A stretch of DNA of 64,000 nucleotides from an uncultured Chloroflexia bacterium. GTDB lineage: Bacteria > Chloroflexota > Dehalococcoidia > GIF9 > UBA5629. Location: positions 56,825 to 120,824 of the forward strand of contig CAWAQY010000004.1 of the NCBI GenBank assembly GCA_963784375.1, given 5' to 3'. Of the stretch, positions 24,784-58,414 are shown piece by piece. The first letter of the stretch is position 1, and each line of letters begins with the position of its first letter. Made by a program: the position numbers and the translations under genes. The notes under the pieces are model-generated. The model did no database searches, had not been told where the DNA came from, and was given only the letters and a program-made list of their open reading frames with translations.

Positions 24784-24804
24784 ATTAGTTCCGGGGTAAA
24801 TATC

Positions 24805-32754: not shown

Positions 32755-33559
32755 TTAAGGGGGATTTGGACAAAGCGCGCCGGTACTATCCAGTCTGTTT
32801 CTGCCGATTTCAAGTAACTGCTTTTCGGCGGTTGAAGACAATCCAAGATCGGGTATAAGTCTTTCCATGTCTTCAAATTTGCCGAACCCACCCAGATAAC
32901 CGTTTACTCGCGTCGCTGCCGTAGAATTTGTCAGATCGTTATCATCCGGGTATTTCATCTGGAATTCTCTGAGAAGCCAGGGATACATTTTCAGATAGTA
33001 TTTCTGGTGATAATCCTCAGCTAGATAGAATGTTAGTATATGGTTTGAGCTCGGTATATACCTTCTGTCCCAGCCTGGTTTCTTCCTGTTGCATCGATTC
33101 CAGAGCTAACCTTTTTTGTTCTTCGTTAGCATAAAAGATTATTGACTTGTACTGAGTCGAATCGGACTCATAAACCGGGAAGTGGCTTTGCCAGAACACG
33201 GTGAGCAATCCCTGGTAGGAGATAACAGCGGGGTCGTAATCAACCTGGACAGTTTCGCTATAGTCACCGATTTTATAGTATGTAGGATTGTTGGAACTAC
33301 CGCCTGCATAGCCGACCCTGGTACGTATTACACCGTTAAGACTCCCGAACTGGGAGTCCGATCCCCAGAATCAGCCTAATGAAAAAGTCGCAGTTTCAAT
33401 TTTAGCTGGAGTTAAAGTATCAACCAATGGAATTTCAGACGTAGCCAATGTCATGCCGGTCTCCTGTTCAGCTTTGTTCGCACAAGCCCCTAATGCAGAA
33501 GGCACTAACAAACTGGCAAAAACCAAAATCAGTATCACTATATTTTTCATCATATTCAA
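32755..33559 (-). CDS. secreted/lipoprotein hypothetical; frameshifted into 3 pieces
   Basis: A signal peptide with lipobox-like LGAC is present (MMKNIVILILVFASLLVPSALGACANK). Confidence 0.4.
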
Positions 33560-33749
33560 TCTCTCTTTTCAACATAAACCTTCTAACGTGATTATATTTT
33601 ATCGTTAAAAAGGCTTCGGGTATGTGACTTCTGTCTCAGAAATATAAATAATACATCAGTGATGGAATGAAAGCGCTGGGGCAAGTAAATTCTGGGGAAA
33701 GATGCTTGGATTTTAACTATATCTAGGTATGACCCATCGTCGAAGTGTA

Positions 33750-34076
33750 CTAAAGGTTGCTCCACCTGGTTTTTAGCAGTTCCTGTTCGACAAGATAGAG
33801 CCTGCCGTCCTCGGTCGTTTCCACTACTTTGATATGCATCAACAACTGCAGAGCCTTGGGCTTATAATCTCTTAGTTTCATCATCCTGTCAATAAAACTC
33901 GGCGGTTTCAAGCCAAGTTCGTCCACAAACTTAGCATTACCGGGACTTAGTGCCCCATGCTTGCGGAAAATCTTGATTACTTTAGGGCAAGCCATAGCTA
34001 CCATGAGCTGGGGTAGAAAGATCATAGCTGCCAGCAAGACTATGACCATTCCAATTATAATTGCCCAATCATACAT
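33750..34076 (-). CDS. hypothetical membrane-anchored protein
   Basis: It is a 108-aa protein with a single N-terminal TM segment. Confidence 0.4.
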   Translation of the reverse strand: MYDWAIIIGMVIVLLAAMIFLPQLMVAMACPKVIKIFRKHGALSPGNAKFVDELGLKPPSFIDRMMKLRDYKPKALQLLMHIKVVETTEDGRLYLVEQELLKTRWSNL

Positions 34077-34154
34077 GAGACTTATCTCCTCTCGAATTTG
34101 CCCTTCATTTTACCCGATTTACAGAAAGCATGGAAATACAATTAACTGGACATG

Positions 34155-34742
34155 CTATGTCAATTTGAGAATCTGCTGCTTATGTTCTTCCAATGCTTTT
34201 GTGTACTGCGCATCGAGCTCATTGCTGGCTCTACGCCATTCATCCTGGAATTGCTGCTGAATCTGAACTTCCAGATTAGCGGCACCGCCCGGGCGTTGCT
34301 GCAATGCCTTGGCGGTTTCCTGGATTTTCTCCTCGAAATTTTTCTTAAACGTTGCAAATGTTTGCTGGCGTGCCTGATCGTAATACGACAGCAGGTTGTT
34401 AATAAGCTCAAAGATCGTATCAAGCTGTTTCTTATTTTCTTTGAGTAATCTTATTCCCGCCATCGCCCTGCTGGTGACTTTCTTGTCAGTTTCATTATGA
34501 GGAAGGCTTATGTTCCTCATGAATATTTCGTGAGCCCCCTGGACAATGTATTTCCTGCCTTCATTGCCTTTATATTTGTTTAATTCCGCATCCAGATCAT
34601 ACTTATCATCCTGTGTATATTTAGCAGCCATAGAACTTCCCAGCGGAATAAACTCAAGCTGCTTTAGTTCATCCTGAGTCGGTTTCCCAAGCAGCTCGGC
34701 TTTTTCCATTGCTTTTTCCCAGGCGCTTTTCATTTCTCCCAT
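34155..34742 (-). CDS. hypothetical protein (charged, helical)
   Basis: It is 195 aa long with no recognised domain, and lies upstream of 33750-34076 on the same strand. Confidence 0.4.
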   Translation of the reverse strand: MGEMKSAWEKAMEKAELLGKPTQDELKQLEFIPLGSSMAAKYTQDDKYDLDAELNKYKGNEGRKYIVQGAHEIFMRNISLPHNETDKKVTSRAMAGIRLLKENKKQLDTIFELINNLLSYYDQARQQTFATFKKNFEEKIQETAKALQQRPGGAANLEVQIQQQFQDEWRRASNELDAQYTKALEEHKQQILKLT

Positions 34743-35964: not shown

Positions 35965-36893
35965 ATGCCGCGACATCAGCGTTCAATTAGCCCCGTTGAA
36001 TAAAAAGGGGTTGTTGTTAGCCAACCCGATAATGACAGCCGCGGGCACTTCTGGCTATGGCACCGAATGGGATGAGCTGTTAGATGTTCAACAGCTTGGA
36101 GCTGTCGTCTGCAAAGGCACAACCCTCAAGCCGAGAGACGGCAATCCTCAACCGCGTTTGATAGAGACATCTTCAGGTCTGCTTAATTCGATCGGCTTGC
36201 AGAATATCGGGGTTGAAGCTGTAATAAAAGAAAAGGCTCCTGTCTGGAAGCAGTGGCGGGTTCCGGTTATTGTCAATATCGCCGGGGAAAGCATCGATGA
36301 ATACTGCAAGAGTGGCTGCAAGACTCAATGGTGTCCCCGGTATCAGCGGCATCGAAGTTAATATAAGCTGTCCCAATGTCAGTTGCGGCGGAATGGAATT
36401 CGGGATTGACCCTGAGGCCTCTGCCAGGGTTACCAGCGCCGTCAAATCTGCAACGGATTTGCCGGTTATGGTAAAACTCAGCCCTAATGTAACCGATATT
36501 ACTGAGATAGCTCTGGCAGTAGTCGAAGCAGGAGCAGATGCTATAACTCTGATTAATACGTTGCGCGGGATGATGATTAATACCGACAGGGGGAAACCTT
36601 CCCTGGGCAACATAATCGGCGGGCTTTCAGGACCTGCAATCAAACCTGTTGCCCTCTACATGGTGTACAGGGTTGCCCGTGCAGTCAAGGTGCCGGTGAT
36701 CGGATGCGGCGGAATTGCCTGCGCTGAAGATGCACTGCAATTCATTATGGCCGGTGCCAGTGCAATACAAATTGGAACGGCGGGCATGGCGGATCCGGCG
36801 CTATTCTTGAAAGTGCTCAAGGGAATTGTGCAGTATCTTGAAACCAGGAAAATAAAAAAGCTTAAAGATATCGTGGGAATCGCCAGCGAATAA
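35965..36893 (+). CDS. pyrD: dihydroorotate dehydrogenase catalytic subunit (class 1B-type PyrD); frameshifted, start uncertain
   Basis: Supporting motifs are LANPIMTAAGTSGYG, IEVNISCPNV, GLSGPAIKPVAL and IGCGGI. Confidence 0.8.
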
Positions 36894-37377: not shown

Positions 37378-37791
37378 TTAATGACATCCTTCTGTTATCT
37401 CTGCCAGCTCAATGAGCACACCCCGGGTTGATTTAGGGTGCACGAACCCGATTTTCCCAACCAGGCCTTTGCGGCTTTTTTTATCGATAAGTTGATAGCC
37501 CTTTTCAGCTATTGTCTTTAAAGTAGAGTCGATATCATCAACTTCGAAGCAGATGTGATGTATCCCTTCTCCCTTATTCTCAACGAATTTGGCAACCCCG
37601 CCGTCTGGATCAATCGGTTCCAGCAATTCGATTTCGCTTCCATCACCGATGGGTATCAGGGCGGCTTTTACACCCTGCTCAGGAATGGTTTCAATTTTGC
37701 TGGGTTTAACACCAAAGAGGTTTTCGTAAAGCTTAACCGCTTCATCAATATTTTTAACGGCAATCGCTATATGGTGAACTTTTTTGATCAT
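37378..37791 (-). CDS. mce: methylmalonyl-CoA epimerase (VOC/glyoxalase family)
   Basis: The sequence HHIAIAVKNIDEAVKLYENLFG...GIHHICFEVDDID matches the epimerase family. Confidence 0.8.
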   Translation of the reverse strand: MIKKVHHIAIAVKNIDEAVKLYENLFGVKPSKIETIPEQGVKAALIPIGDGSEIELLEPIDPDGGVAKFVENKGEGIHHICFEVDDIDSTLKTIAEKGYQLIDKKSRKGLVGKIGFVHPKSTRGVLIELAEITEGCH

Positions 37792-37854: not shown

Positions 37855-39510
37855 TTAAAATACCAGATATTCCTTCTGTGTTCCGAATACCTGACGAAGA
37901 ACATCGCACATTTCACCAATGCTGGCGTAAGCCTCTGCGCATTCCAAAAATGCCGGCATGGTATTTTCCTGGCTTTGTGCTGCGTGTTCCAGATTTTTCA
38001 AGCTCTTTTGAACCCGGCTATTGTCCCTTGTCTTTTTCACTTTGGCGAGCTGCTCTACCTGTTTTTCCTCCTTTTCCGGATTAAACTTGAGGAGAGGTAT
38101 CCTGGGGTAGGGTGACACGAATTTATTCACGCCAACTACTATGGATTTGCCCTCTTCGATATTCTTTTGCTGGCGATATGAGCTTTCCTGTATTTCTCTC
38201 TGCTGGAACCCTTCTTCAATAGCTGACACCGCACCGTTCAGACGGTCGATTTTAGCAATATATTTCTCTGCTTCCTTTTCCAGGGAATCGGTAAGCGATT
38301 CTACGAGGTAAGATCCGCCAAGGGGGTCGATCACATCACCTACTCCATTCTCAAAGGCCAGCAATTGCTGGGTGCGGAGGGCAATCGTTACCGCGTCTTC
38401 GGTAGGTACTGCATAGGCTTCATCAAAAGAGTTGGTATGAAGCGACTGAGTTCCACCAAGAATCGCTGCCAGGGCCTGAATTGCCACACGCACCACATTA
38501 TTATAAGGCTGCTGCGCAGTGAGTGTGCAGCCGGCAGTTTGAGTATGGAAGCGGAGCATCAGCGAACGCTGGTTCTGCGCCTTAAATCTCTGGCTCATTA
38601 TCTTGGCCCAGAGTCGGCGGGCAGCTCTGAACTTGGCAACTTCTTCAAATAGATTATTATGACTGTCAAAGAAGAATGAAAGCCTGCCGGCAAATTGGTC
38701 TACGCTAAGGCCGGCATCGAGGGCTGCCTGGACATAAGCAATGCCGTTTGCCAGGGTAAAAGCTATTTCCTGGGCTGCAGTGGCACCGGCTTCGCGGATA
38801 TGGTAGCCGCTGATGCTGATAGTATTCCAGTTCGGCACGTTCTTGCTGCAATAAGCAAATATATCCGTAGTCAGGCGCATGGAATGGCGCGGCGGGAAAA
38901 TATAGGTACCTCTGGCTATGTATTCCTTAAGGACATCGTTCTGGGTTGTGCCGTTTAGTTTATCTGGGCTCACGCCCTGCTTTTTAGCCAGGGCAATATA
39001 CATACCAAGCAAAACCGGTGCAGTAGCATTTATGGTCATCGAGGTACTGACTTTATCCAGTGGGATTTCTTTGAACAGAACCTCCATATCTGCCAGTGTA
39101 TCAATGGCAACTCCCACCTTGCCGACTTCACCTCGGGAGATGGGATGGTCCGAGTCATAACCTATCTGTGTAGGCAGATCAAATGCGACGCTGAGGCCGG
39201 TTTGTCCCTGATCCAGGAGATAACGATAGCGGCGGTTGGATTCTTCAGCAGTGGCAAAGCCGGCATACTGGCGCATGGTCCAGAATCTGCCTCGATACAT
39301 GGTTGGCTGGATTCCTCTGGTAAAGGGATGTTCACCGGGATAACCCAGGGAAGCCTGCATAATCAAAGCTTCCCATGTCTTCGGGGGAATACACGGGTTC
39401 CAGAGTTATACCGTCTCCGGTTTCAAAACTCTTTTGCCGCTCAGGTTTTTTAGAGAGTGCAGAAGCGAAAGTGGAACCTTTCCACTCTTGCTTGTTTTTG
39501 CTGGGCATGG
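37855..39510 (-). CDS. methylmalonyl-CoA mutase large (catalytic) subunit; N-terminal frameshift ~39366
   Basis: The 503-aa piece aligns with the MCM catalytic domain ([25 protein letters not shown]...). A further roughly 48 aa of N-terminus lie in another frame. Confidence 0.85.
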
Positions 39511-40298: not shown

Positions 40299-41501
40299 TC
40301 AATCACGGACACTTCGCTCCTCGGAAACACTTATGGCTCGCCATCCTGTCTCCTTTATAAAAACAACAGCGACAATGCCCAATAATGCTAACGATGCCCA
40401 AAAGACAAAGGGTAACCCATAGCTGATGTTGGCTAAGCTGTTGCCGAGCGGGGGTGCTCCAAACCCACCTATTTGACAGATGGCAATCACCAATCCTATA
40501 GCTGTTGCGGAATATTTCACCCCTATTTCCTTGTTCTCCAGGCACAAGGTAGTGATTAATGGGGGACCTATACCAAAAACACTCAATATAATAACAATGA
40601 CCCATACCAGTTCATTATGTGTGATGGACAGCAGACCAACGCCGATACCACCCACAGCAAATGCCCCAAAAAGACAAAATTTTCTCGAGCCAATCCTATC
40701 GGATAAAAATGTAAGCGGGATAACCACTAAAGCACTCATACCGCTGTAAATAGCCAGCGTCCCGTCAGCCGCCGCGGCATCCCACCCATTCCCACGTAGA
40801 TAAAGAGGTAGGAACCCGGCCATCCCCTGGACGCAGCCATAATAAGCTAATAGACAAAGTCCAAGCAGCCAGACAGCTTTGATGCGTAAAAGATGTGAAA
40901 ACGCCTGACGGAAAGGAAATGGTTTGACAACATCAGCAGACTTAACTTGAACTGGTTCCTTTACAGTGAGCAGCCAGAGCAAGCTAAATATAATGCTCAC
41001 ACCTCCGTACAGAAACAGCACATTTTCCCAGCCGCCGAGCCACGGTGAGAGGATAGTGGCACTAATGAGCGGACCAAGTGCGAATCCAAGTCCACCACCT
41101 GCTCCCATCAACCCCTGGGCAAGTCCCTGCTGTCGCCATGATACTGACAAGCCGGCAACCACAGTTATAGCAGGTATGCTTGCAGAACTCAGGACGCCCC
41201 ATAAAAAAGTAGTTACCATCAGACTTACAAAGTTGTCTGATAATCCCCTGAGAGCACCCGTTAGTCCTGCCAAAAAACAAAAGAGAACCAGGGTGCGTTT
41301 GACACCCAGCCGATCGCAGAGTAACCCGCCTATCGGCATAATGAATATGCTGCCAAATGAAATCATTCCCCAGACCATTCCTACCTGTACCAGGTCCAAT
41401 CCCAACTCCCCGGATATCTCCTTAAATAAAACAGGCATGCACCTCATCGGCATGTTTACGGCAAATCCAAAAGTGCACGCTGCAGGATAAGTACATACCA
41501 T
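40299..41501 (-). CDS. MFS transporter
   Basis: It is a 400-aa protein with 12 TM segments and MFS motif A-like GGLLCDRLGVKR. Confidence 0.75.
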   Translation of the reverse strand: MVCTYPAACTFGFAVNMPMRCMPVLFKEISGELGLDLVQVGMVWGMISFGSIFIMPIGGLLCDRLGVKRTLVLFCFLAGLTGALRGLSDNFVSLMVTTFLWGVLSSASIPAITVVAGLSVSWRQQGLAQGLMGAGGGLGFALGPLISATILSPWLGGWENVLFLYGGVSIIFSLLWLLTVKEPVQVKSADVVKPFPFRQAFSHLLRIKAVWLLGLCLLAYYGCVQGMAGFLPLYLRGNGWDAAAADGTLAIYSGMSALVVIPLTFLSDRIGSRKFCLFGAFAVGGIGVGLLSITHNELVWVIVIILSVFGIGPPLITTLCLENKEIGVKYSATAIGLVIAICQIGGFGAPPLGNSLANISYGLPFVFWASLALLGIVAVVFIKETGWRAISVSEERSVRD

Positions 41502-41854: not shown

Positions 41855-42352
41855 CTACGGGAAAAACACTGTGTTTCTCTTGGTGAGGGCTTGTAACGCC
41901 TTGCCCCGTATCTTTTCTAATAATGAACTTAGCTGCTGGCGCTCTTTTTCGGAGAGGCAAGACATTAGTTCTCGGATTGACTCTCTTCTCATTGAGTGTT
42001 TATAGGCTTGCTCTCCTTTTTTTGTTAATGCAATGTGTACCTCATTCTTTTTTTTGCCTAAGCCATTAGTCTTACTCACGTAACCTTGTTTTTCCATCCT
42101 GGTCAAAATTTTGGAAACCGAATGCGGTTCTCTTAATATCCACTTCGATATTTCACCAGGTGTAGATTTTCTTTTTAGTTTACTAAGAACCTTAACAATA
42201 AATAGGACCGCAGCCTGCTCAGTTGTAATACCATATTGACTGAGTTCTCTACTCCTCACTCTGAATACTGTGTCTCTCGCCTGGTGAAGTAACCACCAGG
42301 TTTTAAAATACTTATCTTTTGAAAAATAATCTCTCATCTTAACCCTAAACAT
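41855..42352 (-). CDS. MarR-family transcriptional regulator
   Basis: The wHTH is present (YGITTEQAAVLFIV...PGEISKWILREPHSVSKILTRMEKQGYV). It is divergent from the molybdoenzyme gene. Confidence 0.8.
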   Translation of the reverse strand: MFRVKMRDYFSKDKYFKTWWLLHQARDTVFRVRSRELSQYGITTEQAAVLFIVKVLSKLKRKSTPGEISKWILREPHSVSKILTRMEKQGYVSKTNGLGKKKNEVHIALTKKGEQAYKHSMRRESIRELMSCLSEKERQQLSSLLEKIRGKALQALTKRNTVFFP

Positions 42353-42488
42353 TCAATATCGTTGATACCTATAAGTTATTCTCCCCTGCACATAAATCTT
42401 ATATGCAAAGTTTGAGTAACTGCTATTTCTTTACTCAGTAATATTTTAGCACGTGTTGAAAATAAAAAGCTAGGTATTTACAAAACTA

Positions 42489-42517
42489 TTGACAAGGAAT
42501 GTGAGATAAGGTAATAT
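42489..42517 (+). promoter_or_regulatory. sigma70-type promoter (TTGACA-17 bp-TAATAT) facing the molybdoenzyme gene
   Basis: The -35 element is consensus and the spacer is 17 bp. The -10 element matches the consensus in 5 of 6 positions. It lies about 140 nt upstream of ATG 42658. Confidence 0.5.
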
Positions 42518-42529
42518 TGTGCATATTAT

Positions 42530-42555
42530 AGTTCCATGGAATATGTTATGGAACT
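42530..42555 (+). promoter_or_regulatory. inverted repeat agttccat-N10-atggaact (contains palindrome ttccatggaa); candidate MarR operator
   Basis: A perfect 8-bp inverted repeat lies immediately downstream of the -10 element, in the MarR/molybdoenzyme divergent intergenic region. Confidence 0.45.
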
Positions 42556-42657
42556 TATCACAGGCAATATCATAAAGTGCTTGTTCGACTCATTATAGTT
42601 GAACTAATTAACAAGTGTTTATTACCAAAACATAGTCTCTAAGAGGAGTGAACTAAA

Positions 42658-45413
42658 ATGTCAGACAGAAAAAATGAGTTAAAGGCTCGACCTGAGGCTA
42701 TACCTGCTAAAGGATCAGAATCAGAGGGGGCGGAGAAGACATTCATAAAAGCACTCGGCCTTGGTGGTGTGGTTGGTGGAGGGGCTCCCTGCGCGGTTGA
42801 TGTTAAAGATGGAAAAATAGTCAGGATTAGACCGTTCCATTTTGACTGGAAATATGACAAGAAAGATTTCAATCCCTGGCAGATTAAGGCGCGGGGTAAA
42901 GTTCTTAACGCGATTTTAAAATCACAACCATCCCCTTTCTCCATGGCCTACAAGAAACGAGCTTTTTCTCCCAACAGAATTAAATATCCCTTGAAGAGGG
43001 TTGACTGGGACCCTAACGGCGAGAGAAATACCCAAAACCGTGGCAAGAGTAAATACGTCCGAATTTCGTGGGATGAAGCCACCGATATCGTCGCCAGTGA
43101 GCTAAAGAGAGTGCAAAAAAAATACGGGCCATATGCTGTTATGGCACAAATAGACGGACATGGGGAAAGTAAGTTATTGCATTTTCCTCATGGCTGTCCG
43201 GCATTGCTCCTTAGTAAGATGGGAGGTTTCACCCAGCAGGTAAGACAGCCGGATAGCTGGGAAGGCTGGTACTGGGGAGCAAAACATGTCTGGGGGGAGG
43301 GAAGTGTGGGTATGATGGACCCGGCGGACAATATGATAAATGATATATCGCAGAATAGCGACATGGTACTGTGGTGGGGAGGCGATCCGGAAACAACACA
43401 ATGGGGGATGACCGGGCAGACTGTGAGTCGTACATGCTATTTCTGGTCAGAAATTGGTATAAAACAGGTGTATATTTGCCCTGATCTGAACTACGGAGCC
43501 GCGATCCATGCCGATAAATGGATCCCTATACTGCCTAATACGGATGCTGCTCTGCAACTGGCAATTATATATATCTGGATAAAAGAAGGGACCTACGATA
43601 AGGAATACGTGGAAACACATTCCGTGGGTTTCGACAAAGTTCAAGCATATGTTATGGGTAATGAAGATGGAATTCCCAAAACACCTGAATGGGCATCTCC
43701 CAAATGCGGTGTCCCGGAATGGACAATCAAAGCCCTGGCGAGAGAGTTCGGCTGCCAAAACTACCTCAACGCCCATGCTGCTGGAGGTGGCATGATAAGG
43801 GGGCCATACTCGCATGAACCCTGCAGGTTGGAATGCATTCTACTGGGGATGCAGGGGCTGGGAAAGCCAGGAGTTCACCAGTTCCGAACAACTCAGGGAA
43901 AGCCCAGAGCTGATGTGCCTCATATCTGCTCGTTTACCATATCGCAAGTTCAGGGTGCGGTTGGGAAGAAGGATGACCCAAGAGCAAGATCTTCTTTTCC
44001 AGAGGTATGGTATTACAGCTACGGTTGGGCCGAGTACTAGCGAACCAATAAATCTCCCCATGCTTTCGCGGGTTACTCTCCAGTGCTTCACGAAACAGCA
44101 TATTCCCAAAGACTCTCATCCAGGAGGCGATACTTAATCCGCCTATCAGCTATTGGGGTACCGGAGCAATTATGGATGCAACTGAAGGCCAGTTCGTGAA
44201 ATATAACTATCCGATACCCAAAGAAGAAGGCGGCACAGAAATACACATGATATGGACCGATACCCCATGCAGGACTACCTGCTGGAATTGTGGTAACAAG
44301 ACATTGGAAGCAATGGAAAGCCCCAAGATTGAATGCATTGTCGCCCAGCACCAGTGGCTTGAGAACGATTGCCTGATTGCCGATATAATCCTGCCGGTTA
44401 GTACCACGTTAGAGGTAAATGATATCACGACCAACACCAGGTGGGGTGAGGATATCCAGAGTGCGGGACTTCAAAGGCAAGCCATTGGGCATGTCGGCGA
44501 GTCCTTGAGCGACTATGAGATTGTGCTGGAAATAGCCAAAAAGCTGGGACTTTATGAGGAGGTTTCGGGGGGTAAGTCCGAAGAAGAATGGATTAGGTAC
44601 ATTTTTGATGTACGTTTTAATTTATCAGAGCATCTCAGCTGGGAAGAATTCGAAAAGAAGAGTTACTATCCCTTTCCTACCGCCCCGGATTGGGAAAAGG
44701 ACCCGGCTGGCTTAATAAAGTTCTACAAGGACCCCGAAGCCAATCCCTTACCGACGCCGTCAGGTAAACTGGAGTTCTACTCCGAGAGATTAGCCAGGCA
44801 CTTTCCTGATGATAAGGAGAGGCAGCCCATACCGAAATGGATTGAAAGAGGGGAGACTCATGATGAAAGAATCTCCGGTGAAAGGGCTAAGAAGTATCCA
44901 CTGCTCATGATGTCCAACCACCCAAGGTGGAGAATGCATGCTCAGTGCGATGATATAAGTTGGACGAGGGAAGCCCCAACCTGTAAGGTGAAGGGTCCGG
45001 ATGGTTATATGTATGAGCCTCTCTGGATACACCCCTCAACTGCTGCGAAGAGAGGTATTAAGAATGGAGACATCGTCAATGCTTATAACGAGAGGGGAGG
45101 TGTCCTTTGCGGCGCCTATGTGAGTGAGAGAATAATGCCTGGGGTAGTATCTGTGGACCATGGGGCAAGGTGTGACTGGATAATATACGGAGAGCTTGAT
45201 AGAGGTGGTGCTATTAACCTCATAGCTCCAAATGCTGTAACCTCGAAGAATTGTAACGGACAGGCCACCAGCGGCTTCCTGGTTGAGGTTGAAAAGGTAA
45301 CCCTGGCCCAGATGGAAGAATGGAAGAATCGATATCCGGAAACCTTGAATAGAGAATATCACCCGGCTTCCGGACTACGCTTTAACGCCTGGGTTGAAGG
45401 AGGTATGGAATAA
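42658..45413 (+). CDS. molybdopterin (bis-MGD) oxidoreductase, pyrogallol-phloroglucinol transhydroxylase large-subunit (AthL)-like; at least 3 frameshifts between 43900 and 44170
   Basis: It aligns with Pelobacter acidigallici AthL along the whole length, with no N-terminal Fe-S motif and no Tat signal. Matching segments include WQIKARGK~WKIEARGK, DPNGERNTQNRG~DPNGERNPQLRG, RISWDEATDIVASEL, PDSWEGWYWGAKHVWG, DKEYVETHSVGFDKV...GIPKTPEWA, GMQGLGKPG and the C-terminal NGDIVNAYNERGGV~NGDLIRAYNDRGSV. Confidence 0.75.
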
Positions 45414-45621
45414 ATGAAAGTTTTTATTCATGATGTTTCTATCTGCAATGGAACATGTCAAAAGTTATGAGCTCAAAGCTTTTTAAAACAAGTCTTTATA
45501 AATTGCAGATTGTAAATGCATAAGAGTAAAGATATAATGTTAGTTGTTATAACTACCCTGGCTAAATCATCTGTACCACAATTTCTTTGAGCGGAGCTAA
45601 AGAGCGGAAAAGGGCCTTGCT

Positions 45622-46359
45622 TTGACAGACTCAAAAGATGAAGATATAAGAATCCGCGCTTCCGCTATTATCGAATTAGGCAAAACGAGGCAGCGAGAAG
45701 CCGTAAGACCATTAACCACCATTCTTGAGGACAAGGACGAGGTTGAATGGATAAGAGCGTGCGCAGCCATCGCCCTGGGAAGAATATCCGGTGATGAAGT
45801 AGTGCCTCCGTTATTACATGCCCTGCGAGAAGACAGCCCGATGGTATGCAGGTGTGCAATTGTGGCTTTGGGTGACACGAAAAACGAGCGAGCGATACAA
45901 CCCCTCAAAGAGATTCTTGAAAATGTCCTTAAGATAGACCTTCATGCCCTGACCATAAAAGTATTGGGGAATATCGGCGGTCCGGAAGTTACTTCACTAT
46001 TAATTCAGGCTTTGGAAAGTGCCAACAGCCAGGTCAGATGTAATGCTGCCTGGGCACTCGGTGAGCTTCGAATCAGGGATGCTGTTATTCCTTTGCTGAA
46101 GCTATTGAAGGATGATGATACGTGTCTGCGGGCAGTTGCCGCCTCTTCGTTAGGTTTGATAGGAGATAAACGAGCCGTCGAGCCATTAATAGAAACCTTA
46201 AGCGATGAGGCTGAGACGGTAAGGACAGTTGTGGTTTCCTCTTTAGGTTATCTTGGCGATAGACAGGCAATCGAACCACTTAATAAAGTTCTTGATGATA
46301 ATAGTCTGCAGGTACGGAGGCAAGTGGTTATATCTTTGGACAAACTCCAGACGGCATGA
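45622..46359 (+). CDS. HEAT-repeat (PBS-lyase-like) protein
   Basis: At least 6 repeats of the A.ALG...AV..L type are present. Confidence 0.7.
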   Translation: MTDSKDEDIRIRASAIIELGKTRQREAVRPLTTILEDKDEVEWIRACAAIALGRISGDEVVPPLLHALREDSPMVCRCAIVALGDTKNERAIQPLKEILENVLKIDLHALTIKVLGNIGGPEVTSLLIQALESANSQVRCNAAWALGELRIRDAVIPLLKLLKDDDTCLRAVAASSLGLIGDKRAVEPLIETLSDEAETVRTVVVSSLGYLGDRQAIEPLNKVLDDNSLQVRRQVVISLDKLQTA

Positions 46360-46432
46360 AAATCGATATCGGTAGACACAATAAATCCAGGATATTTGGC
46401 AATTGCCGAATATCAAAAAAGGAGCACGTATA

Positions 46433-47921
46433 ATGGATGACAGGAAATCGGAACTGGAGATGTTAGTTGGCAAAAAAAATGTTTTCGATGATCGGGAAAT
46501 GTTGGAACGTTATTCCAGGGACAATAGCTTTGCCGCTGCAATGTTGCCGGAGTTTGTGGTAAAACCGATCAATGGGGATACCATTCAGAAAATTGTCAAT
46601 TGGGCTAAAAAAACCAGGACACCTCTGATTCCAGTAAGCTCGGGGCCACCACACTTTCATGGCGGCACGGTCCCCGGCGTTTCCGGGAGTGTCGTCATCG
46701 ACCTCAGTGGAATGAAAAAGATTATTAAAGTTAACCGCCGAAACAGGTTAGCAATAATTGAGCCCGGTGTAACTTATGGCGAGCTACAGCCAGTATTGGC
46801 GAAGGAAAATATGCGGCTTTCTATGCCATTACTTCCACGGGCTAAAAAGTCCGTTATAGCCAGTTTATTGGAGCGCGAACCAAGGTTAAACTGCCGTTAC
46901 CAGTGGTCTTCACTTGATCCCTTGCGCTGTCTTGAAATTGTATGGGGTGATGGAAACAAGTTCTATTCAGGTGGAGTGGGCAGCTATCTATCGGTAGATA
47001 AAGAAGGTGATACAAATTTCGAAGAACAGTTTAAGCAGGAGAAATGGCAGGTAGACCCATCAGGTCCCGCACAAACTGATTTCTACAGGTTCCTTACAGC
47101 GGCCCAGGGGAGCATCGGAATTGCCACCTGGGCATCAGTGAAATGCGAGGTTTTACCCGAAATTCACAAGACTATTCTTTGTACCTGGTAAAAAGCTCGC
47201 TGATCTGATTGATTTCACTTACAAACTGCTCAGGTTCCGATATGCTGATGAGCTTTTTATAGTGAACGGAGTGAACCTGGCATATATGCTTGGGAATACC
47301 CCTGACCAAATCCAGACACTTAAGAAGCAATTTCCACCGTGGATTGCCATAGTCGGGTTAGCTGGCCGGACTGAGCTGCCAGTTGAACGAGTCGAGTTCC
47401 TCGAAAAAGACATCGCTGAAATCGCTAAACAATTCGGCCAAGAATTTGTACAAAAGATACCGGGAGTTGAAAGCTCAAAGGTGTTGGACTCGTTAATAGG
47501 TCAGCCTCGCGAACCTTATTGGAAACAGGGATATAAGGGAGGATGCCAGGATATCTTTTTCATCACCACCCTTGATAAAACGCCCGATTTCTTAAAGACA
47601 ATGTACTCGGTAGCAGAAACTTCAAGTTACCCGACTTCAGATATTGGCGTGTACATACAACCTCGGCATCAGGGTGCAAATTGTCATTGTGAGTTCAACT
47701 TACCTTACGTTCCCGACGAACGCGACGCATCCTCGATTAAGGCTCTCTTCATTAAAGCCAGCCAGGCGCTGTTGGATCAGGATGCATTTTTTACCCGGCC
47801 TTACGGTATCTGGGCTGAAATGGCCTTCAAACGAAATGACCAGAACACCCATTTACTAAAGAAAATAAAGGAAACCTTCGACCCTAACGGAATAATGAAT
47901 CCGGGAAAGTTGTGTTTTTAG
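46433..47921 (+). CDS. FAD-linked oxidase (FAD_binding_4, GlcD/D-lactate dehydrogenase-like); frameshift ~47190-47260
   Basis: The PCMH-type FAD domain is present (VVKPINGDTIQKIVNWAKKTRTPLIPVSSG...). The C-terminal motif FDPNGIMNPGKL is also present. Confidence 0.7.
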
Positions 47922-47973
47922 GTCTTCCTAACAATGTACGTTCCGAAAGTTAAAATCAAAAAGGAGGAATAAA

Positions 47974-49206
47974 ATGGCACTAGAAGATTACCGGGCTGAT
48001 AAGGAAAGATGCAGTCTCTGTTCTTACTGCAAATGGATTCCACAGGATAAGATCAAGAGCTGGAGGTTTGCTAAAGGCTGCCCCAGCATTGCCTACAGCA
48101 ATTTTAATTCTTATTCAGCACGAGGACGTTTTGCTGTTGCCCGTTCACTGCTGGACGGAAAAGCTGAATATACCGATAGAGTGCTGGATATAATTTATAA
48201 AGATTTGAGCTGCGGTTCCTGCGATGTAAGCGACAAGGTGTGCCGATATAACCTGGAGCCGCTGCAAAACATACTGGAACTAAAAGCCAGAGCTGTCATG
48301 GACGGTCAACTTCTGCCTCAGCATATCCCCATCATTGATAATCTCAAGAAAGAAGACACTATGATGCTGGGTATGGTTAAAGAGAAGCGCGGTGAATGGG
48401 CAAATGGTCTGGATGTCAAGGATCTTACTAAAGAGAAAGCTGAGATTGCCTTTTTTGCCGGCTGCCGGTTCAGTTATGACCAGGAGTTGTGGAAAGTGCC
48501 GCGGGCGGCGATAACTCTGTTTAAGAAAGCCGGGGTTGATATCGGGATTATGGGGCGTGATGAAAGCTGCTGTGGCGGCCGAGCTTACCAGATGGGCTAC
48601 CAGGGAGAATTCGTAAAATTTGCCGAAAATAATATCGAAGCCTGGAAAACAGCAGGAATAAAAACTGTTGTCACATCCTGCTCCGATGGCTACTATACCT
48701 TTAAGCGTCTCTATCCCAAGCTGGGCTCTAAAGTTGAAGTGCTGCATACCGTGGAGTTCGTCGAACGCCTCATCAAGCAAGGTAAATTAAAGTTCAAGCG
48801 GCCTGTTCCAATGACGGTAACCTATCATGACCCCTGCCATCTGGGCAGACAGGGAGAGCCATATGTTCCCTGGAACGGCAAGGAAAGGAAAATCTTCAAC
48901 CAGGTGGTGATATATGACCCGCCGAAGCCCAGGTATAATGGGGCCTGGGGAATTTACGACCCGCCCCGAGAAGTGCTTAAGAGCATCCCCGGTCTAAAGC
49001 TGGTGGAGATGGAAAGAATCAGGGAGTATGCCTGGTGCTGCGGTGCCGGTGGCGGTTGTATTGATGCCTATCCTGAGTTTTCCGACTGGACGGCCGGGGA
49101 AAGAATTGAGGAGGCAAAATCAACCGGAGCTGAAGCTATTGTAACCGCCTGTCCCTGGTGCGAACATAGTTTCATCGATGCTGTCAAGCGGATGGCGGGA
49201 AGATGA
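47974..49206 (+). CDS. Fe-S oxidoreductase with two CCG (Cys-rich) domains, HdrD/GlcF-like
   Basis: The N-terminus has CSLCSYC. Two CCG motifs are present (FFAGC...CCGG and YHDPCHLGR...CCGAGGGC). Confidence 0.75.
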   Translation: MALEDYRADKERCSLCSYCKWIPQDKIKSWRFAKGCPSIAYSNFNSYSARGRFAVARSLLDGKAEYTDRVLDIIYKDLSCGSCDVSDKVCRYNLEPLQNILELKARAVMDGQLLPQHIPIIDNLKKEDTMMLGMVKEKRGEWANGLDVKDLTKEKAEIAFFAGCRFSYDQELWKVPRAAITLFKKAGVDIGIMGRDESCCGGRAYQMGYQGEFVKFAENNIEAWKTAGIKTVVTSCSDGYYTFKRLYPKLGSKVEVLHTVEFVERLIKQGKLKFKRPVPMTVTYHDPCHLGRQGEPYVPWNGKERKIFNQVVIYDPPKPRYNGAWGIYDPPREVLKSIPGLKLVEMERIREYAWCCGAGGGCIDAYPEFSDWTAGERIEEAKSTGAEAIVTACPWCEHSFIDAVKRMAGR

Positions 49207-49324
49207 AGGTCTTTGATATTATCGAACTGGTCAGCAGGCGACGAATAGTTAGCAATCCAAAAGATTTGAAGTTTTAGTTTCGAGGTTATAGGATCAAAAC
49301 TTAAAGTGAGAAGAGAAAGGAGAA

Positions 49325-50894
49325 ATGGCTAATTCGAAAGAAATATATCAGGAATTCGAAGCCATCGTAGGACCGGACAACATTTCGGATGATCCCGCCG
49401 TGCTGGACACATATGTGACTCCTATGGCGCAGGCTCAGCATCATATGGGGCCGGTTTATGGTGTAACTACACCCAGAGGATTGGCTATTTTGATGCCCGG
49501 AAGCACAGAAGAAGTCCAGACGATAGTCAAAGTTTGTAACAAATACAAGATAAAATTCCATGCCGCCAGCACATTCTGGACATCACGCGCAAATATTTGT
49601 GATGACAATGCTATTACGCTGGATATGAGACGCATGGACCGGATTCTGGAGATAAATGAGAAGAACCAGTATGCCGTAATCGAGCCTTATGTGATCGGCG
49701 CCACGCTTCAGGCTGAGGCCATGAAGGTTGGTTTGAATACTACTATTATCGGTGCCGGCTCCAGCTGTTCTCCTCTGGCCAGTGCCTGCTCCAACGGCGG
49801 TCCATCGCCCTTTGCCCTATATGGCGGTCTTACCCGCGAGAATCTACTGTCTTTTGAATGGGTAATGCCGAACGGCGAGATTCTGAGGTCGGGGTCTCTG
49901 GGGAAGGGTTGGGCTGGTTTTGTGATGATGGGCCGGGCCTCGGTATTAGAGGACTAATGATGGGACCCAGGGAAGTATGGGAGCTATGGGCGTATTTACC
50001 AAATGCGCGATTAAGCTGTTTCCCTGGCCGGGGCCTGCCGGATTTCCCAGTGACGGAATAATCCCGGCTTATAAAGCCATGCTGCCACCTAATATCGTGG
50101 GACATACATTGGCCTGGCCATCCTGGGAAGCTTATGCCAACGGTCTTTACAGAATCTGGGATAGCGATATCAGCGGTTATTATTCTCACCGGCAATATAA
50201 TATGTTCGGCAGAGACCTCAAAGGGGCCATGATCAAAATCCTGGCCGACCCAACCAAGACACTTAACGACCTCGAGGAGCTGATGAAGGACCCGGAATTA
50301 CGCAGAAAAACAGAGGAGATGAAACGCGATTTTCAGATTATTCTGGCCGGTATGACGCAGAGGGATATCGAATGGCAGGAGAAAGTCCTGGACAAAATAC
50401 TGGCCGAGACCGGGGGCTGGAAAGCATCTCTGATGGAAGAAGCCGGTATTAAAGACTGGAGCCTGCTCTTCTTGCTCAGGTTGGGACATAAGAATTTGAA
50501 TTTTGTTTTTGCCGGCGGCTATGAAGGTTGTTTTGGGATTGGCGGAGTTCCGGATTATTCCTGCCCCAAAGTTGAAATGGCAGGTGAGTTCAAACGGAAA
50601 TGGGAACAGGAACACGACGCTTTCGTGGCGGCTGGAGGAGATTGTATGATGGGCGGTATGGGCGGTATCGGAGGCGGAGGGATAACCGCCTGGGAGAACT
50701 TCACTCATTTTGACTCACACGATGCAAAATCGGTGAAGGAAACACATGAATTTTTTGAAGCTACATCCAAGTTCGGCAAAGAAAACGGACTGGGCGCAAT
50801 GGAGAGAATGTACGCAATATCCAGGCGGGATGACGGCTACGGATTGACTAAAGAAGAGCAGGAGAAAAAGGCATCGGCTTCGGCAAGCCTTTAG
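49325..50894 (+). CDS. FAD-linked oxidase, VAO/PCMH-family-like (approx 520 aa); 2 frameshifts ~49900-49980
   Basis: The FAD_binding_4 domain is present (TPRGLAILMPGSTEEVQTIVKVCNKYKI...). A long C-terminal substrate domain follows. Confidence 0.65.
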
Positions 50895-51205
50895 CATACG
50901 AATACCAGTGGAAAATCAGGGAGTTTCTTGATCCTAATCATCTTGGCGATACCTATTACGTGACGCTAGAACCAAAATAAATAATAAAATTATTATAAGA
51001 AACGGGTTTACTAATTTAAACAATCCATCGGAATGTTACCTCCCTTTGCAAACCTTAAAATAATTGGTAGCGTTTTGGACACACTTCGAGGTTAAAACAA
51101 GAGAAGGAATCCGTGTTTCTAATTTGACCTAACTTGATTCGACCTTTTATCGGCGTGTGATAAAGAACGAAAGGACCCTATAATCATCTTGACGCTCGCC
51201 GTGCC

Positions 51206-54581: not shown

Positions 54582-55584
54582 TTATAATCCTGAGGATTTC
54601 AATACACGTAATGCTCTCAATGTTACCCATTTATTGGGTTGCTTCTTAGCACCAAAATTAACCCATGTTTTACCGGTATAGTCATATTCTAACAACCAAC
54701 GCCCCAGGGCATCTTGCTTCTCATTGATTATCTTCATCGCTTTTGCCAACCGTGGATCATTGCCATAACCTAAACCGACTAGAGCTTCAACAATCTGCAA
54801 TAAGTCCGTCACATAGAAGACCGGAAAACCGAACTTCCACCAATTCCCACTGGGTTTATTGCTATAGCCGCAGGGATAATCCGCCTTTGCCGGGTCTGTG
54901 CTGAAAAGAAAATCCACTCCTGTGTGAATGGCATTGTCGATCAAGGGCGTCCTTTTTCCTTCGGCAATTTACTGAAAGCAAGCATCACTTTTACTGCCCC
55001 CCAGGCACAGGGCAGTTTATTATTTGAACCGCAGGCGAAGTTTGGTCCGCATTTCCCGGCATAGTAGCGCACCGGGGCCTCTTTATCTGTCATTGGCGCT
55101 ATACCTTCACCTGTGACGCTTCTTGCCATCCACTCAAATGTCTTATCTAAACGAGAGTCTTTACAACCCAAATCCAGAAGAGAGGCACAAAGATTACCTT
55201 GCAAACAGTCCACTGTCCCCGAAGGAAGTCCGTTCACTGTGAATTGCCCGTTTTCCGTCAGAGCATGATCCAGTACATAAGAGCAGGCAGAGGTTATTCG
55301 ATTGTCTATTTCAAGGGATGCACCAAGTTGGGCTAATAAGATAACCGACCACACCGTTCCAGTGTATTTGGGATAGTATCCTGCTCCCGGTTTTTCCCAG
55401 TACCCTTCTTCTTCATATTTGATAGAACTTGTGCAATCTGACCTTTTTCATGCGCTTGCTTCTTGGCCGTCGCCAATTCCTTTGTATCGGCATCAATCAG
55501 GTCACGTAAAGCAAGATATCTCACGCCTATATCGTCTGGTTCCAGCAACCAATCAACTGGTTTTTTCTCCATCGTCCTGTTCAT
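54582..55584 (-). CDS. hypothetical protein, possibly alpha/alpha-toroid prenyltransferase/squalene-oxidase-repeat-like; split into 3 ORFs
   Basis: It has a QW-like motif (EKQDALGRW). Three consecutive overlapping ORFs are present. The call is weak. Confidence 0.3.
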
Positions 55585-55827
55585 ATCAGCATATTATACT
55601 TTCAAACCTATCGACTTCAAGGTTGGATAGTTAATGTAATAAACATCACGATGGTCTGCCACAGAGGTCGGCGTGGTTGTTGCCAATGCCGTGACGCCAA
55701 CATTTATCGCGCAGCAAGGGTCTACGCCCGCTCATTCGGAGGATATAGTCTGGTTTGATGGCAATGGAGATGGAAACGGTTAGACTTTAACGGTAAGTTA
55801 ATCAGAAACTATTGTTTTTTTTAGCAA

Positions 55828-56428
55828 CTAAGTTCTGATGATTGAGGTACGAAAGACTTTCCAAAGACTTTCGTATTTCTTTTCAAGGTTAAAATCATAG
55901 TTGCTTAAAGCCCAGATATTTACCAGTCCTTGTATCATACCAAACAGAATAAGTGCGGCTGCTTCAATATCTATATCCTCTTTGACCTCTCCGGTCTTTA
56001 TCCCTTCAGATAATAGATGTTTCAAGCTGATTACATAGTTATTTATGACCTCAGAAACCTTTTTGTTTAGTTTTTTATCGCCAAAACTGATAATTTCGGC
56101 TATAACCTGAAAAGATATACCTTTCCTTTGCTGTATTGTTGACAGATGGTTCTTTAACACAGTGTCGAGAAACTCTAAGCGAAGTGAAGTTTGTATAAAT
56201 ATGGTCGTTGATATCTGTCAGAAGGTCATCTGCAATTTGGTCAGCCAATCCGGACAAGACCTCACCTTTACTTTTAAAATGTCGATAAATAGCTCCCTCA
56301 GATATACCAACTTCTTTGGCGATTTTGCCAACAGTCACATGTTCACTCCCATGTTTTACCACCAGTTTTCGGGCAGCATCAATTATCTGGTCTTGCCTTA
56401 TATTTGATTTAAGACGTTTTTTAACCAT
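55828..56428 (-). CDS. TetR/AcrR-family regulator; frameshifted
   Basis: The N-terminal HTH is present (IIDAARKLVVKHGSEHVTVGKIAKEVGISEGAIYRHF). The C-terminal piece lies in another frame. Confidence 0.65.
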
Positions 56429-56980
56429 TCAGAATACCTGCAAATTATTGTACCCCTTTATCCTATCACAAAAGACACCCGATAACACTAATTTTCACAA
56501 CTTTTTTTAGGGTAGCTATGCCTGGGGTATTGACAAAGTAATCATTGTCGTTTAATATGTAAGCGTTTACTTTCTAAATATATATTTCATTTTATTTAGT
56601 AGTATTTTAGCGCTAACATAGCGACATTTTAACAAAAGAATCAAGGGGATATACAGTGGGGATTTTTAAAAAGAAAATAATTAAAGAAATACCAGGAGGA
56701 GCCTGGGGGCATTTAATATATACACATAAAATGGATGTTGATATCCTCGCGAGATGATATACGCTGTGTCGAGCGCGAAGGACTCCTTGAAGGTAAATGG
56801 AAGGTGCGTTTTCTCCGAGTTTTCAGCTTATCAGAAACAAAGGAGAAGGGAATAACAATTGATGGATGGGAAACTTTTGACCAGCATCCCGAACTGATAC
56901 TCTTCGAAGGCTATTGGCAGGAATATTCAAATGAGGCAAATCTTCAACGGAAAAGAACAATTGAATAATTTATTTTTAGA

Positions 56981-57181
56981 TTGAAAGGAGAACAGGAAAT
57001 GTCACAACAGAATGCACCAGAACAAAAGAAACCTGAAATAAAGATTGGGGAAGAAATAAAAAAGAAAAAAGGGTTCTGGGGAAAATTTATGACATTTTTG
57101 ATGATGGGTGGTTTTATTGTAGTTCTTATAGTTATTGTTGCACTATTTATTGCTATTTCATTGGTATTTAAGTGCAAGTAA
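56981..57181 (+). CDS. small membrane protein
   Basis: An RBS (aaggag) precedes the start. A single TM segment is present. Confidence 0.4.
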   Translation: MKGEQEMSQQNAPEQKKPEIKIGEEIKKKKGFWGKFMTFLMMGGFIVVLIVIVALFIAISLVFKCK

Positions 57182-57621
57182 CGAGGTAAATTCTCACATA
57201 TGCTCTGGCTTAGTCCATTTGTCTCGTTGCGCCCTGTGCTGATTAATGTTTTTACCTTAAATCCGTCTCTTCTAGTATGCTCTTTACCGCGAGGGTAAAT
57301 ATGCGGGCTTTTGAACCTATTTTATTTTAGAACCCGCCCGAGTTTCAGTTTATGTAGGCGATCAAGGATAAATGCTGGTCTCGCTCCCATCTTTTTTTTG
57401 TACAATTCGTGCAGTTTTTAACATTTAATTAATATTTTAATCCTACAATAAAAATATATCTCTATTCAGCAGAAAATACTCGGAACCTATAGTCTGATTA
57501 TTGACCTGATCAGCAAGGTATCCAGTTTTTTTATTTATAGACTAAATCTTAAAGGAGTAGACAAGTGGCACGGAGACAGAAATACACGAAGACACTAAAA
57601 ATAAAAAGGAAGTAGAACGCG

Positions 57622-58414
57622 GTGGCAAAAAGTTCTGGTTCTGAGGAGGGAACTAAGGCGCTTGCCATAAGGAAAACTGAAAGAAAAATGGAGCTGGCTA
57701 ACAAGCAGGAAACAATGACGCCTGTCAGAAAAAAGACCAGCCGTGCCATTAAAGCAAATTCAGTTGCTCTCAAGGTGTCCAGGACAAAATCGACCAAAGT
57801 AGCAAACGAAATTGGAGAATCGACGACAGAACTATCAAACGATAGATTAGCAGCCGCCGGCAATGGTGGGGTATTGGACGGCAATTCCGATAAAAAACGC
57901 AGCTCTTTTATTCCCAGGATACACTTTTCCGTACATTTTGATAGTATTATTATTAATTTTTTGTGCTGTGCCGATGATAGAAATTAGCTACCAGGTACCG
58001 GTTCCCTACCAGGCCGTTGAAACTTATACCGAACAAGAACCATATGTTGACTCTGTTTCTTATTCTGAAAAACAACCTTATACAACTACTCAAGCCTATG
58101 TTGTGAGCCAGCCCTACACGGTGACGGTGCCTTATGTGGTATATCCACAGCCGGTACCACCTCCTCCGACTACGAATAACGTCACTCCCCCGCATCCGCC
58201 TCTCCCTCCACAGCCACAGGTCTACTATCGTGAAGTTACAAAGTACATGGATGTAACGCAGTATAAGGACATAACCCAATATCAAGACATACAGAAAACA
58301 AGAAACGAAACGAAGGTCAGGCCTGTCCAGAAGCAAAGAACGGTAACCAGGATCAGGATGGAAACCCGGCACAAAGTCGTTCCGATTCTTTACTACCTGA
58401 TATCGTATGAATAA
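57622..58414 (+). CDS. Pro/Tyr/Gln-rich repetitive membrane protein; frameshifted, start uncertain
   Basis: It contains a TM segment and degenerate repeats of the (Q/E)PY(T/V)... type, a PPPPTTNNVTPPHPPLPPQPQ tract, and YKDITQYQDIQ repeats. Confidence 0.4.

Follow-up and report, generated by a model that had tools for sequence, protein, structure and literature searches.

The stretch of DNA that was analysed in this work (the window) comprises 64,000 nucleotides (nt) of contig CAWAQY010000004.1 from an uncultured Chloroflexia bacterium (GenBank assembly GCA_963784375.1). The gene cluster under study contains an athL-like gene, named after the large (alpha) subunit AthL of Pelobacter acidigallici's pyrogallol-phloroglucinol transhydroxylase, a remnant of the gene of the small (beta) subunit BthL, and four further genes that encode a HEAT-repeat protein, a flavoprotein (FAD1), an iron-sulfur (Fe-S) protein with two CCG domains, and a second flavoprotein (FAD2). 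The last three genes are referred to as the triad, and the triad with the HEAT gene as the module. A first-pass annotation, made from the sequence alone, had placed this cluster in a Dehalococcoidia-like background, and the searches made here agree with a Dehalococcoidales-like background. Relatives are cited by handles that begin with L or P. The features of the locus, in coordinates of the window, are as follows.

40299 to 41501, minus strand: MFS transporter gene (Pfam MFS_1, 8e-39), on the same strand as marR and 3' of it; a possible MarR-regulated efflux or uptake gene.
41855 to 42352, minus strand: gene of a MarR-type winged-helix regulator (HTH_27, 28 bits), divergent from the athL-like gene.
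42489 to 42517, plus strand: sigma-70-like promoter TTGACA-17-TAATAT (10 of 12 consensus matches, pattern match only), 5' of the athL-like gene.
42530 to 42537 and 42548 to 42555: perfect 8-bp inverted repeat AGTTCCAT-N10-ATGGAACT found by the repeat search; candidate operator.
42658 to 45413, plus strand: athL-like gene of a bis-molybdopterin guanine dinucleotide (bis-MGD) molybdoenzyme, about 900 codons with two frameshifts (Pfam PF21423, PF00384, and PF01568; phmmer against PDB).
45414 to 45470, plus strand: bthL remnant of 13 codons (45414 to 45452, MKVFIHDVSICNG) followed by five unrelated codons and a stop.
45510 to 45538, plus strand: promoter-like site TTGTAA-17-TATAAT in an A/T-rich region 5' of the HEAT gene, partly conserved with L086/L087.
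45622 to 46359, plus strand: gene of a HEAT-repeat (PBS-lyase-like) protein (HEAT_2, 1.7e-47), the first gene of the module.
46433 to 47921, plus strand: FAD1, a flavoprotein of the VAO/PCMH superfamily of about 495 amino acids (aa) (FAD_binding_4), with one frameshift near 47165 to 47175.
47974 to 49250, plus strand: HdrD/GlcF-like Fe-S protein with two CCG domains; its open reading frame (ORF) runs to 49206, and a frameshift after about 49188 displaces the final ~20 codons.
49325 to 50980, plus strand: FAD2, a second flavoprotein of the VAO/PCMH superfamily of about 553 aa (FAD_binding_4, 8e-20), with three frameshifts and its stop at 50978 to 50980.

The Pfam searches recovered every gene that had been listed in the first-pass annotation (MarR, molybdoenzyme, HEAT, two FAD, and CCG genes), and the end of FAD2 was moved from 50894 to its true position at 50980.

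The solved structure that is closest to the product of the athL-like gene, by a wide margin, is AthL (4v4c_A). The fragments of the window protein matched it with E-values of 4e-83 and 1e-41 (PDB phmmer), where the N-terminal fragment that gave 4e-83 reached 1e-35 with trimethylamine N-oxide (TMAO) reductase, the next structure. The full-length homologue L006 gave 3e-128 with AthL and 1e-77 with TMAO reductase. The window protein also matched the Pfam family AhtL-like_1st (PF21423) with 45.5 bits against a cut-off of 27, and its matches to Molybdopterin PF00384 (63 and 33 bits) and Molydop_binding PF01568 (61 bits), all above their cut-offs, place it in the DMSO-reductase (bis-MGD) superfamily. 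These results support the earlier assignment to the AthL branch and not to the polysulfide or tetrathionate reductase clade. The lack of an N-terminal four-cysteine cluster and of a twin-arginine (Tat) signal was likewise borne out: Pfam gave no match to Molybdop_Fe4S4 (PF04879) in the window protein, and the N-terminus (MSDRKNELKARPEAIPAKG...) contains a single Cys and no twin-arginine motif. Across its three reading frames the gene product is 70-72% identical to the intact 879-aa ORF of L006, and none of the three frame segments contains an internal stop.

The active site was compared by means of an alignment of 82 full-length homologues with the window protein. AthL residues 11-871 were rebuilt from the PDB alignment, and this numbering reproduces His144, Arg153, Asp174, Ser175, and Tyr404. 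We take Ser175 to be the Mo ligand and Asp174 and His144 to be the catalytic pair of AthL, and Arg153, Tyr152, Trp354, Tyr404, and Tyr560 presumably line the substrate and cosubstrate pocket of the P. acidigallici transhydroxylase. These roles were reportedly described by Messerschmidt and colleagues in 2004, and the transhydroxylase is said to be an alpha-beta heterodimer. His144, Asp174, Ser175, and Trp176 are invariant in the alignment, so the Mo-coordinating Ser and the Asp/His pair are conserved in the window protein as in all 82 homologues. The position of Arg153 is occupied by Pro in the window protein and in 70 of the 82 homologues. Tyr152 is replaced by Phe and Trp354 by Gly in the window protein, Tyr560 falls within an AthL-specific insertion that has no counterpart there, and the position of Tyr404, which is Phe, Tyr, or His in the homologues, lies inside the frameshift zone of the window gene.

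The window locus thus resembles AthL/BthL of P. acidigallici (PDB 4V4C, 4V4D, and 4V4E) in the AhtL-like N-domain that stands in place of the Fe4S4 domain, in the lack of a Tat signal, in the four invariant residues, and in the athL-bthL order with adjacent stop and start, which survives as a stub. It differs in the overall identity of only about 37%, in the changes R153P, Y152F, and W354G, in the missing Tyr560 insertion, and in the deletion of bthL. Because AthL is the closest structure and His144, Asp174, and Ser175 are kept, yet the pocket residues differ and the identity is low, these comparisons place the window enzyme in the AthL branch without making it orthologous to the pyrogallol enzyme. 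Azoarcus anaerobius has an AthL/BthL homologue, the resorcinol hydroxylase RhLS, which keeps its small subunit and carries out a redox hydroxylation of a different phenol from pyrogallol, and it illustrates that the AthL branch is not limited to transhydroxylation.

Contrary to what had been suggested, enzymes of this family are not new to the lineage. Two AthL/BthL operons have been reported in each of the sediment Chloroflexi RBG-2 and RBG-1351, the latter described as the nearest genomic neighbour of Dehalococcoidia (Hug et al. 2013, PMC3971608), and DEH-C11, a single cell of the Dehalococcoidia, was found to hold three AthL/BthL-like copies (Wasmund et al. 2016, PMC4959651). The window shares with these operons the enzyme family, related lineages and habitats, and the presence of several paralogues per genome. 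It differs from their alpha and beta pairs in that the beta gene is truncated and the module follows. The exhaustive representative search with the athL-like query gave 336 clusters (50% identity) at E <= 1e-30. The 79 AthL-like loci considered below are the best of at least 589 relatives in species-representative genomes; their identities are 64-74%, and their hosts belong to Dehalococcoidia, Actinomycetota, Desulfobacterota, Oscillospiraceae, and Acidobacteriota. In one relative, L035 (Chloroflexi bacterium RBG_13_51_18), whose identity over the N-terminal query is about 70%, BthL is encoded downstream. Tandemly duplicated AthL-BthL pairs were observed in single contigs, in L001 (6502 to 13438) and L003 (6449 to 13508), next to TRAP or ABC transporters.

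The first-pass annotation had stated that no BthL-type Fe-S gene adjoins the alpha gene. This holds for an intact gene: apart from the remnant, no BthL-like sequence was found in the 64-kb window at E <= 1e-5. It does not hold for the remnant itself. The relaxed tblastn search identified MKVFIHDVSICNG at 45414 to 45452, immediately past the athL stop, which is identical at 12 of 13 positions to the N-terminus of the BthL-like protein of L001. The DNA from the 3' end of athL through this stub is near-identical to the athL-bthL junction of L001, and the homology stops abruptly after AATGG. An adjacent BthL-like gene had been named as the finding that would make the arrangement canonical, and the locus comes close to it, with a stub in place of a full gene. 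A BthL-like gene (Fer4_11 with a CarboxypepD_reg-like barrel) lies immediately downstream in 65 of the 77 informative full-length homologues, where it starts at or next to the athL stop. In both L086 and L087, the closest relatives of the downstream genes (CCG protein 93% and HEAT protein 77% identical), the HEAT gene is directly preceded by a sequence for the last 47-71 residues of a BthL-like protein. Since the C-terminus of BthL lies just 5' of HEAT in L086/L087, the ancestral order was in all likelihood athL-bthL-HEAT-FAD1-CCG-FAD2, from which the window lineage would have lost about 0.8 kb of bthL. The alpha-only arrangement that had been proposed as non-canonical is therefore better described as a derivative of the canonical pair, and the stub rules out, for the window, that the absence of a beta subunit is an ancient architecture by design.

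The loss of bthL is not confined to the window. The window protein falls into one group of the neighbour-joining tree with L006, L015, L020, and L025, all of which lack BthL, and with L024, which has it. In L020 (MFD04408.bin.2.47) some 27 codons of bthL (MKAFIINIGICNG...CQIVCKDEHV) are kept as a stub at 12604 to 12710, after an intact 881-aa AthL-like gene, and the breakpoint of this stub differs from that of the window. Because the subclade mixes members with and without BthL and the breakpoints differ, bthL has been lost more than once in it while the alpha genes stayed intact. Beta-less cases with an intact alpha gene are L006, L015, L020, L025, and the P0139 contig, and the window is also beta-less. 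Hydantoinase A/B-type genes flank the athL-like gene and stub of L020 on both sides.

A missing bthL may also be explained as an assembly artefact or a minority structural variant, where in the organism itself the HEAT module would be preceded by a canonical athL-bthL pair. The assembly is error-prone, L086/L087 as the closest relatives have BthL at that position, and the stub is near-identical to the 5' ends of functional bthL genes. However, the consensus errors of long reads are typically indels of 1-2 nt and not clean losses of about 0.8 kb. The stub in the independent metagenome-assembled genome L020 and the beta-less layout in the JGI contig of P0139, which is 3300075153 with 15,947 nt, show that such deletions occur in nature. 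We regard this explanation as quite unlikely.

Three reading frames make up the athL-like gene, with frame 1 ending at about 43917, frame 2 covering 44015 to 44110, and frame 0 beginning at 44112, which places one frameshift between 43918 and 44014 and the other at 44111 within cccaaag. Exactly at both frameshifts, the interval from 'GKPR' to 'IPKTL' has 64 residues in the window protein and 42-45 in the homologues. The excess of about 20 residues at 43918 to 44014 could reflect either a genuine insertion in a loop or a short stretch duplicated locally by the assembly. The downstream genes are broken as well: FAD2 was reassembled from four tblastn segments against the 553-aa protein of L086, and the C-terminus of the CCG protein was recovered in another frame. 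Elsewhere in the window, split genes were found for a dihydroorotate dehydrogenase (DHO_dh; 35996-36361 / 36270-36893), a UbiD-family decarboxylase (3670-4803 / 3327-3812), an FAD_binding_2 flavoprotein (5752-6312 / 4872-5852), and two MFS transporters, and single-base frameshifts split many window genes, for example at 35996-36893, 19310-20687, and 29442-30561. Three stretches of the window (22567-25176, 32191-34155, and 55354-57622) have no ORF of at least 120 aa. The deposited gene calls of the 134,946-nt source contig (NCBI/ENA) are already fragments, and related ENA long-read contigs are broken in a like manner. The window looks like an unpolished long-read assembly. Because no fewer than five window genes outside the cluster are split alike, the frameshifts are assembly noise that extends over the whole window and is not specific to the cluster; cluster-specific pseudogenisation was ruled out on the same ground.

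Recoding (Sec, Pyl, or programmed frameshift) was considered because all 120 top protein matches were at most 728 aa long. It was ruled out by homologues that break at differing positions and by the intact, orthologue-grade athL-like ORFs of 872-881 aa in the genomes of L006, L015, L020, and L025. The protein search listed no match longer than about 1.75 times the query (728 aa at most for the 416-aa query and 435 aa for the 249-aa query). Fragment queries therefore return only fragments, and the apparent truncation of the whole family is a search artefact.

The same data bear on the possibility that the locus is decaying, with the athL-like gene a pseudogene after the loss of bthL and some of the frameshifts real. 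The reduction of bthL to a stub, the two athL frameshifts within 200 nt, the variable loop that is longer than that of the homologues, and the heterodimer that the transhydroxylase is said to form would all fit such decay. The density of frameshifts in athL (2 in 2.75 kb) is, however, not above that of FAD2 (3 in 1.66 kb), FAD1, the CCG gene, or other window genes. The remaining ORF keeps its identity to intact homologues, with no stops inside the frame segments, and the beta-less homologues listed above are intact. Decay of the locus is accordingly judged improbable.

The CCG protein matches PF02754 with 105 bits (2e-30) in two stretches and has the N-terminal motifs CxxCxxC...C and CxxCx6C. 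Its homologues, many of them from Dehalococcoidales, also match Fer4_8, are 424-425 aa long, and are up to 93% identical (the 425-aa P0121). Its NCBIfam score for GlcF is 28.6 against a cut-off of 333. Both flavoproteins match known structures through their FAD-binding domain only, profiles included, and the best NCBIfam match of both is GlcD, with 45-65 bits against a cut-off of 567.9. The module resembles the glycolate oxidase GlcDEF and the D-lactate dehydrogenases of GlcD and an HdrD-like protein in having two FAD_binding_4 subunits and one Fe-S subunit with two CCG domains. Unlike GlcDEF, its gene order is D-F-E-like, its scores are far under the equivalog cut-offs, and a HEAT protein is associated with it. 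GlcE has about 350 aa, and FAD2 differs from it with 553 aa. A Foldseek search with the model of an FAD1 homologue gave vanillyl-alcohol oxidase (VAO), eugenol oxidase, and p-cresol methylhydroxylase (PCMH) as top matches (E ~1e-17, TM ~0.55). These 4-phenol oxidases lead the structural matches of FAD1, but the sequence matches cover the FAD-binding domain only, and the partner of FAD1 is a CCG Fe-S protein, unlike the cytochrome c partner of PCMH.

The module is conserved independently of AthL. Across 61 metagenome loci, with CCG identities as low as 53%, the order FAD1-CCG-FAD2 does not change, and the closer of these loci also have the HEAT gene; the HEAT protein of the window is 77% identical to those of L086/L087 and 55-63% identical to those of L083, L084, L085, and L089. 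None of the 79 AthL-like genomic loci has HEAT, FAD, or CCG genes of this kind, so that conserved synteny of AthL with the flavin/CCG genes, which had been proposed as a check in sister genomes, is rejected; it was seen only in a few close relatives. Conversely, flanks of up to 10 kb hold no AthL/BthL gene next to the triad in L083, L089, L090, L093, L150, L151, and L152, nor in the distant L102, L105, L107, L110, L119, L126, and L136. The gap between athL and HEAT is 209 nt in the window and holds TTGTAA-17-TATAAT. Because the module is absent from the 79 AthL loci, the triad occurs without AthL in most loci with long flanks, and a promoter-like site lies 5' of HEAT, the comparison of gene orders identifies HEAT-FAD1-CCG-FAD2 as an independent unit with its own promoter-like region. 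The triad of L085 (6219 to 13701) is followed by two DDE_Tnp_1 transposase copies, a group II intron reverse transcriptase, and a DDE_3 transposase, and in L149 a canonical AthL-BthL pair lies downstream of the triad, beyond a transposase fragment. Mobile elements may be the cause of the variable neighbourhood of the triad.

The upstream region of the athL-like gene was examined for regulatory features. The MarR-type protein encoded divergently on the minus strand scores 28 bits with HTH_27, above the cut-off of 22.2, and 21.4 and 24.5 bits with the families MarR (PF01047) and MarR_2 (PF12802), below their cut-offs of 24.6 and 27; its weak NCBIfam matches are BilQ and HpaR. The divergent MarR-type gene and the near-consensus sigma-70 promoter of the first-pass annotation were both found again. 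The operator that had been described as overlapping this promoter exists as a perfect repeat and lies outside the promoter, 13 nt downstream of the -10 hexamer. Control of the athL-like gene by MarR is plausible as a putative assignment. The MFS gene that follows marR on its own strand is no less likely to be the target, and a MarR-like gene is near only one of the 79 AthL loci (L061). Upstream of HEAT, an A/T-rich stretch with palindromic elements in L087 (370 to 410; GTTATATAAC and ATTATATGATATAAT) is partly conserved in the window (45525 to 45550) and may be a candidate operator. An IclR-type gene lies upstream of HEAT in L089 and L151.

The neighbours of the triad in its relatives suggest what the module may do. 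An aldehyde dehydrogenase adjoins the triad in L102, L105, L119, and L136, and all four pass the NCBIfam model TIGR01722 of methylmalonate-semialdehyde dehydrogenase (MMSDH) with 510-542 bits (cut-off 448.5). An aldehyde:ferredoxin oxidoreductase (AOR), an iron-type alcohol dehydrogenase (Fe-ADH), or a zinc-type one (Zn-ADH) is near the triad in L089, L084, and L083. In the pathway of PCMH, an aldehyde dehydrogenase also acts next after the flavoprotein (PMC1924859). Because the triad is repeatedly paired with the CoA-acylating MMSDH, we infer that the module would be a GlcDEF-like dehydrogenase for a hydroxy-acid, perhaps 3-hydroxyisobutyrate or 3-hydroxypropionate. A methylmalonyl-CoA mutase gene (37855 to 39366, minus strand, 1e-224) is present 4.5 kb upstream of the cluster, as is a gene for a methylmalonyl-CoA epimerase-like Glyoxalase_4 protein (37378 to 37791, minus strand); these genes accord with the MMSDH beside the triad in distant relatives.

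The window was also scanned for genes of phenolic metabolism. None of the phloroglucinol-pathway families (the SDR-type PGR, the 'cyclase' DPGC, and the BKACE TAL; PMC10470551) was found among about 40 window ORFs scanned. A UbiD-family decarboxylase gene (UbiD_N, UbiD, UbiD_C; 3327 to 4803, minus strand) adjoins the FAD_binding_2 flavoprotein gene (4872 to 6312, minus strand), 38 kb from athL. UbiD enzymes include gallate and phenolic-acid decarboxylases, and it is conceivable that the UbiD of the window is a source of the AthL substrate.

Taken together, we consider it probable that the locus consists of two adjoining, separable transcription units, an AthL-branch enzyme minus bthL and HEAT-FAD1-CCG-FAD2, in an indel-rich Dehalococcoidales assembly. 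The gene identities, the stub, the independence of the two modules, and the assembly noise are direct results of the comparisons; substrates, electron acceptors, and regulation are putative. The first unit encodes a cytoplasmic AthL-branch bis-MGD molybdoenzyme, transcribed divergently from the marR-MFS pair, that keeps the Mo-ligand Ser and the Asp/His pair and lacks several substrate-binding residues of AthL. It would hydroxylate some phenolic compound other than pyrogallol, or move hydroxyls between such compounds. The bthL gene, whose product has three [4Fe-4S] clusters and a beta-barrel domain, would have been removed by the deletion that left 13 codons, and the alpha subunit, if still functional, would act either by itself or with a BthL from another place in the genome. 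The second unit, with the GlcDEF-like layout of two VAO-type flavoproteins and an HdrD/GlcF-like Fe-S subunit and with its own promoter-like region, would oxidise a hydroxy-acid or alcohol and pass the electrons through the Fe-S/CCG subunit to a quinone or a thiol/disulfide acceptor.

Several points weigh against this division. AthL/BthL adjoins the module in four of about ten close contexts (the window, L086/L087, the P0139 contig, and L149), which exceeds chance, so that a functional link in a sublineage may be entertained as a minority possibility. The P0139 contig, where an intact 897-aa AthL-like gene is separated by 144 nt, without a BthL, from a HEAT-sized gene that precedes the triad, is a second case of the beta-less layout beside HEAT. 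No terminator-like site was detected between athL and HEAT, and read-through transcription is possible. The deletion of bthL in the window may be real or a consensus artefact, and the hydroxy-acid function proposed for the module relies on the neighbours of distant relatives (CCG identity 57-68%).

Some of these points would also fit a single MarR-controlled operon, as the first-pass annotation had it, in which a beta-less AthL enzyme and the HEAT/flavin/CCG proteins (for example as a replacement electron-transfer partner) form a new anaerobic module for the hydroxylation or dehydroxylation of polyphenols. The genes are co-directional with short gaps (209 nt in the window and 144 nt in the P0139 contig), two beta-less loci adjoin HEAT, and the top Foldseek matches of FAD1 are phenol-oxidising enzymes. 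The stub, however, shows that bthL was lost recently in the window, BthL is kept in L086/L087 and L149, and in L006, L015, L020, and L025, the remaining beta-less members of the subclade, the triad is absent from the neighbourhood. It occurs widely in loci that lack AthL and is paired with MMSDH, a separate promoter-like region precedes HEAT, and the AthL/BthL pair of L149 lies on the other side of the triad, past the transposase fragment. With several AthL paralogues per genome, it also becomes more likely that one of them lies beside another operon by coincidence. A single operon is therefore unlikely. We give a similarly small chance to the proposal that a narrow Dehalococcoidales lineage has coupled an AthL-type enzyme to electron transfer by HEAT-FAD1-CCG-FAD2 for the redox hydroxylation or dehydroxylation of phenolics, where BthL would be dispensable, which would explain its repeated deletion in the window and the P0139 contig.

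The finding is largely ordinary, as both kinds of genes are already known in this bacterial group. If the reading of two separable units holds, its value would be mostly corrective: the beta-less transhydroxylase would be a deletion derivative, the frameshifts would be noise, and the flavin/CCG genes would represent a separate, widespread, and uncharacterised module of Dehalococcoidales and other anaerobes. The recurring MMSDH partner of the triad provides a concrete substrate hypothesis, namely 3-hydroxy-acids. The repeated loss of bthL beside an intact alpha gene fits the older idea that the Fe-S subunit of the transhydroxylase is catalytically dispensable, and the beta-less relatives are natural alpha-only variants with which this dispensability could be tested. 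Also of interest are the AthL genes that are found near the flavin/CCG module within a narrow Dehalococcoidales lineage.

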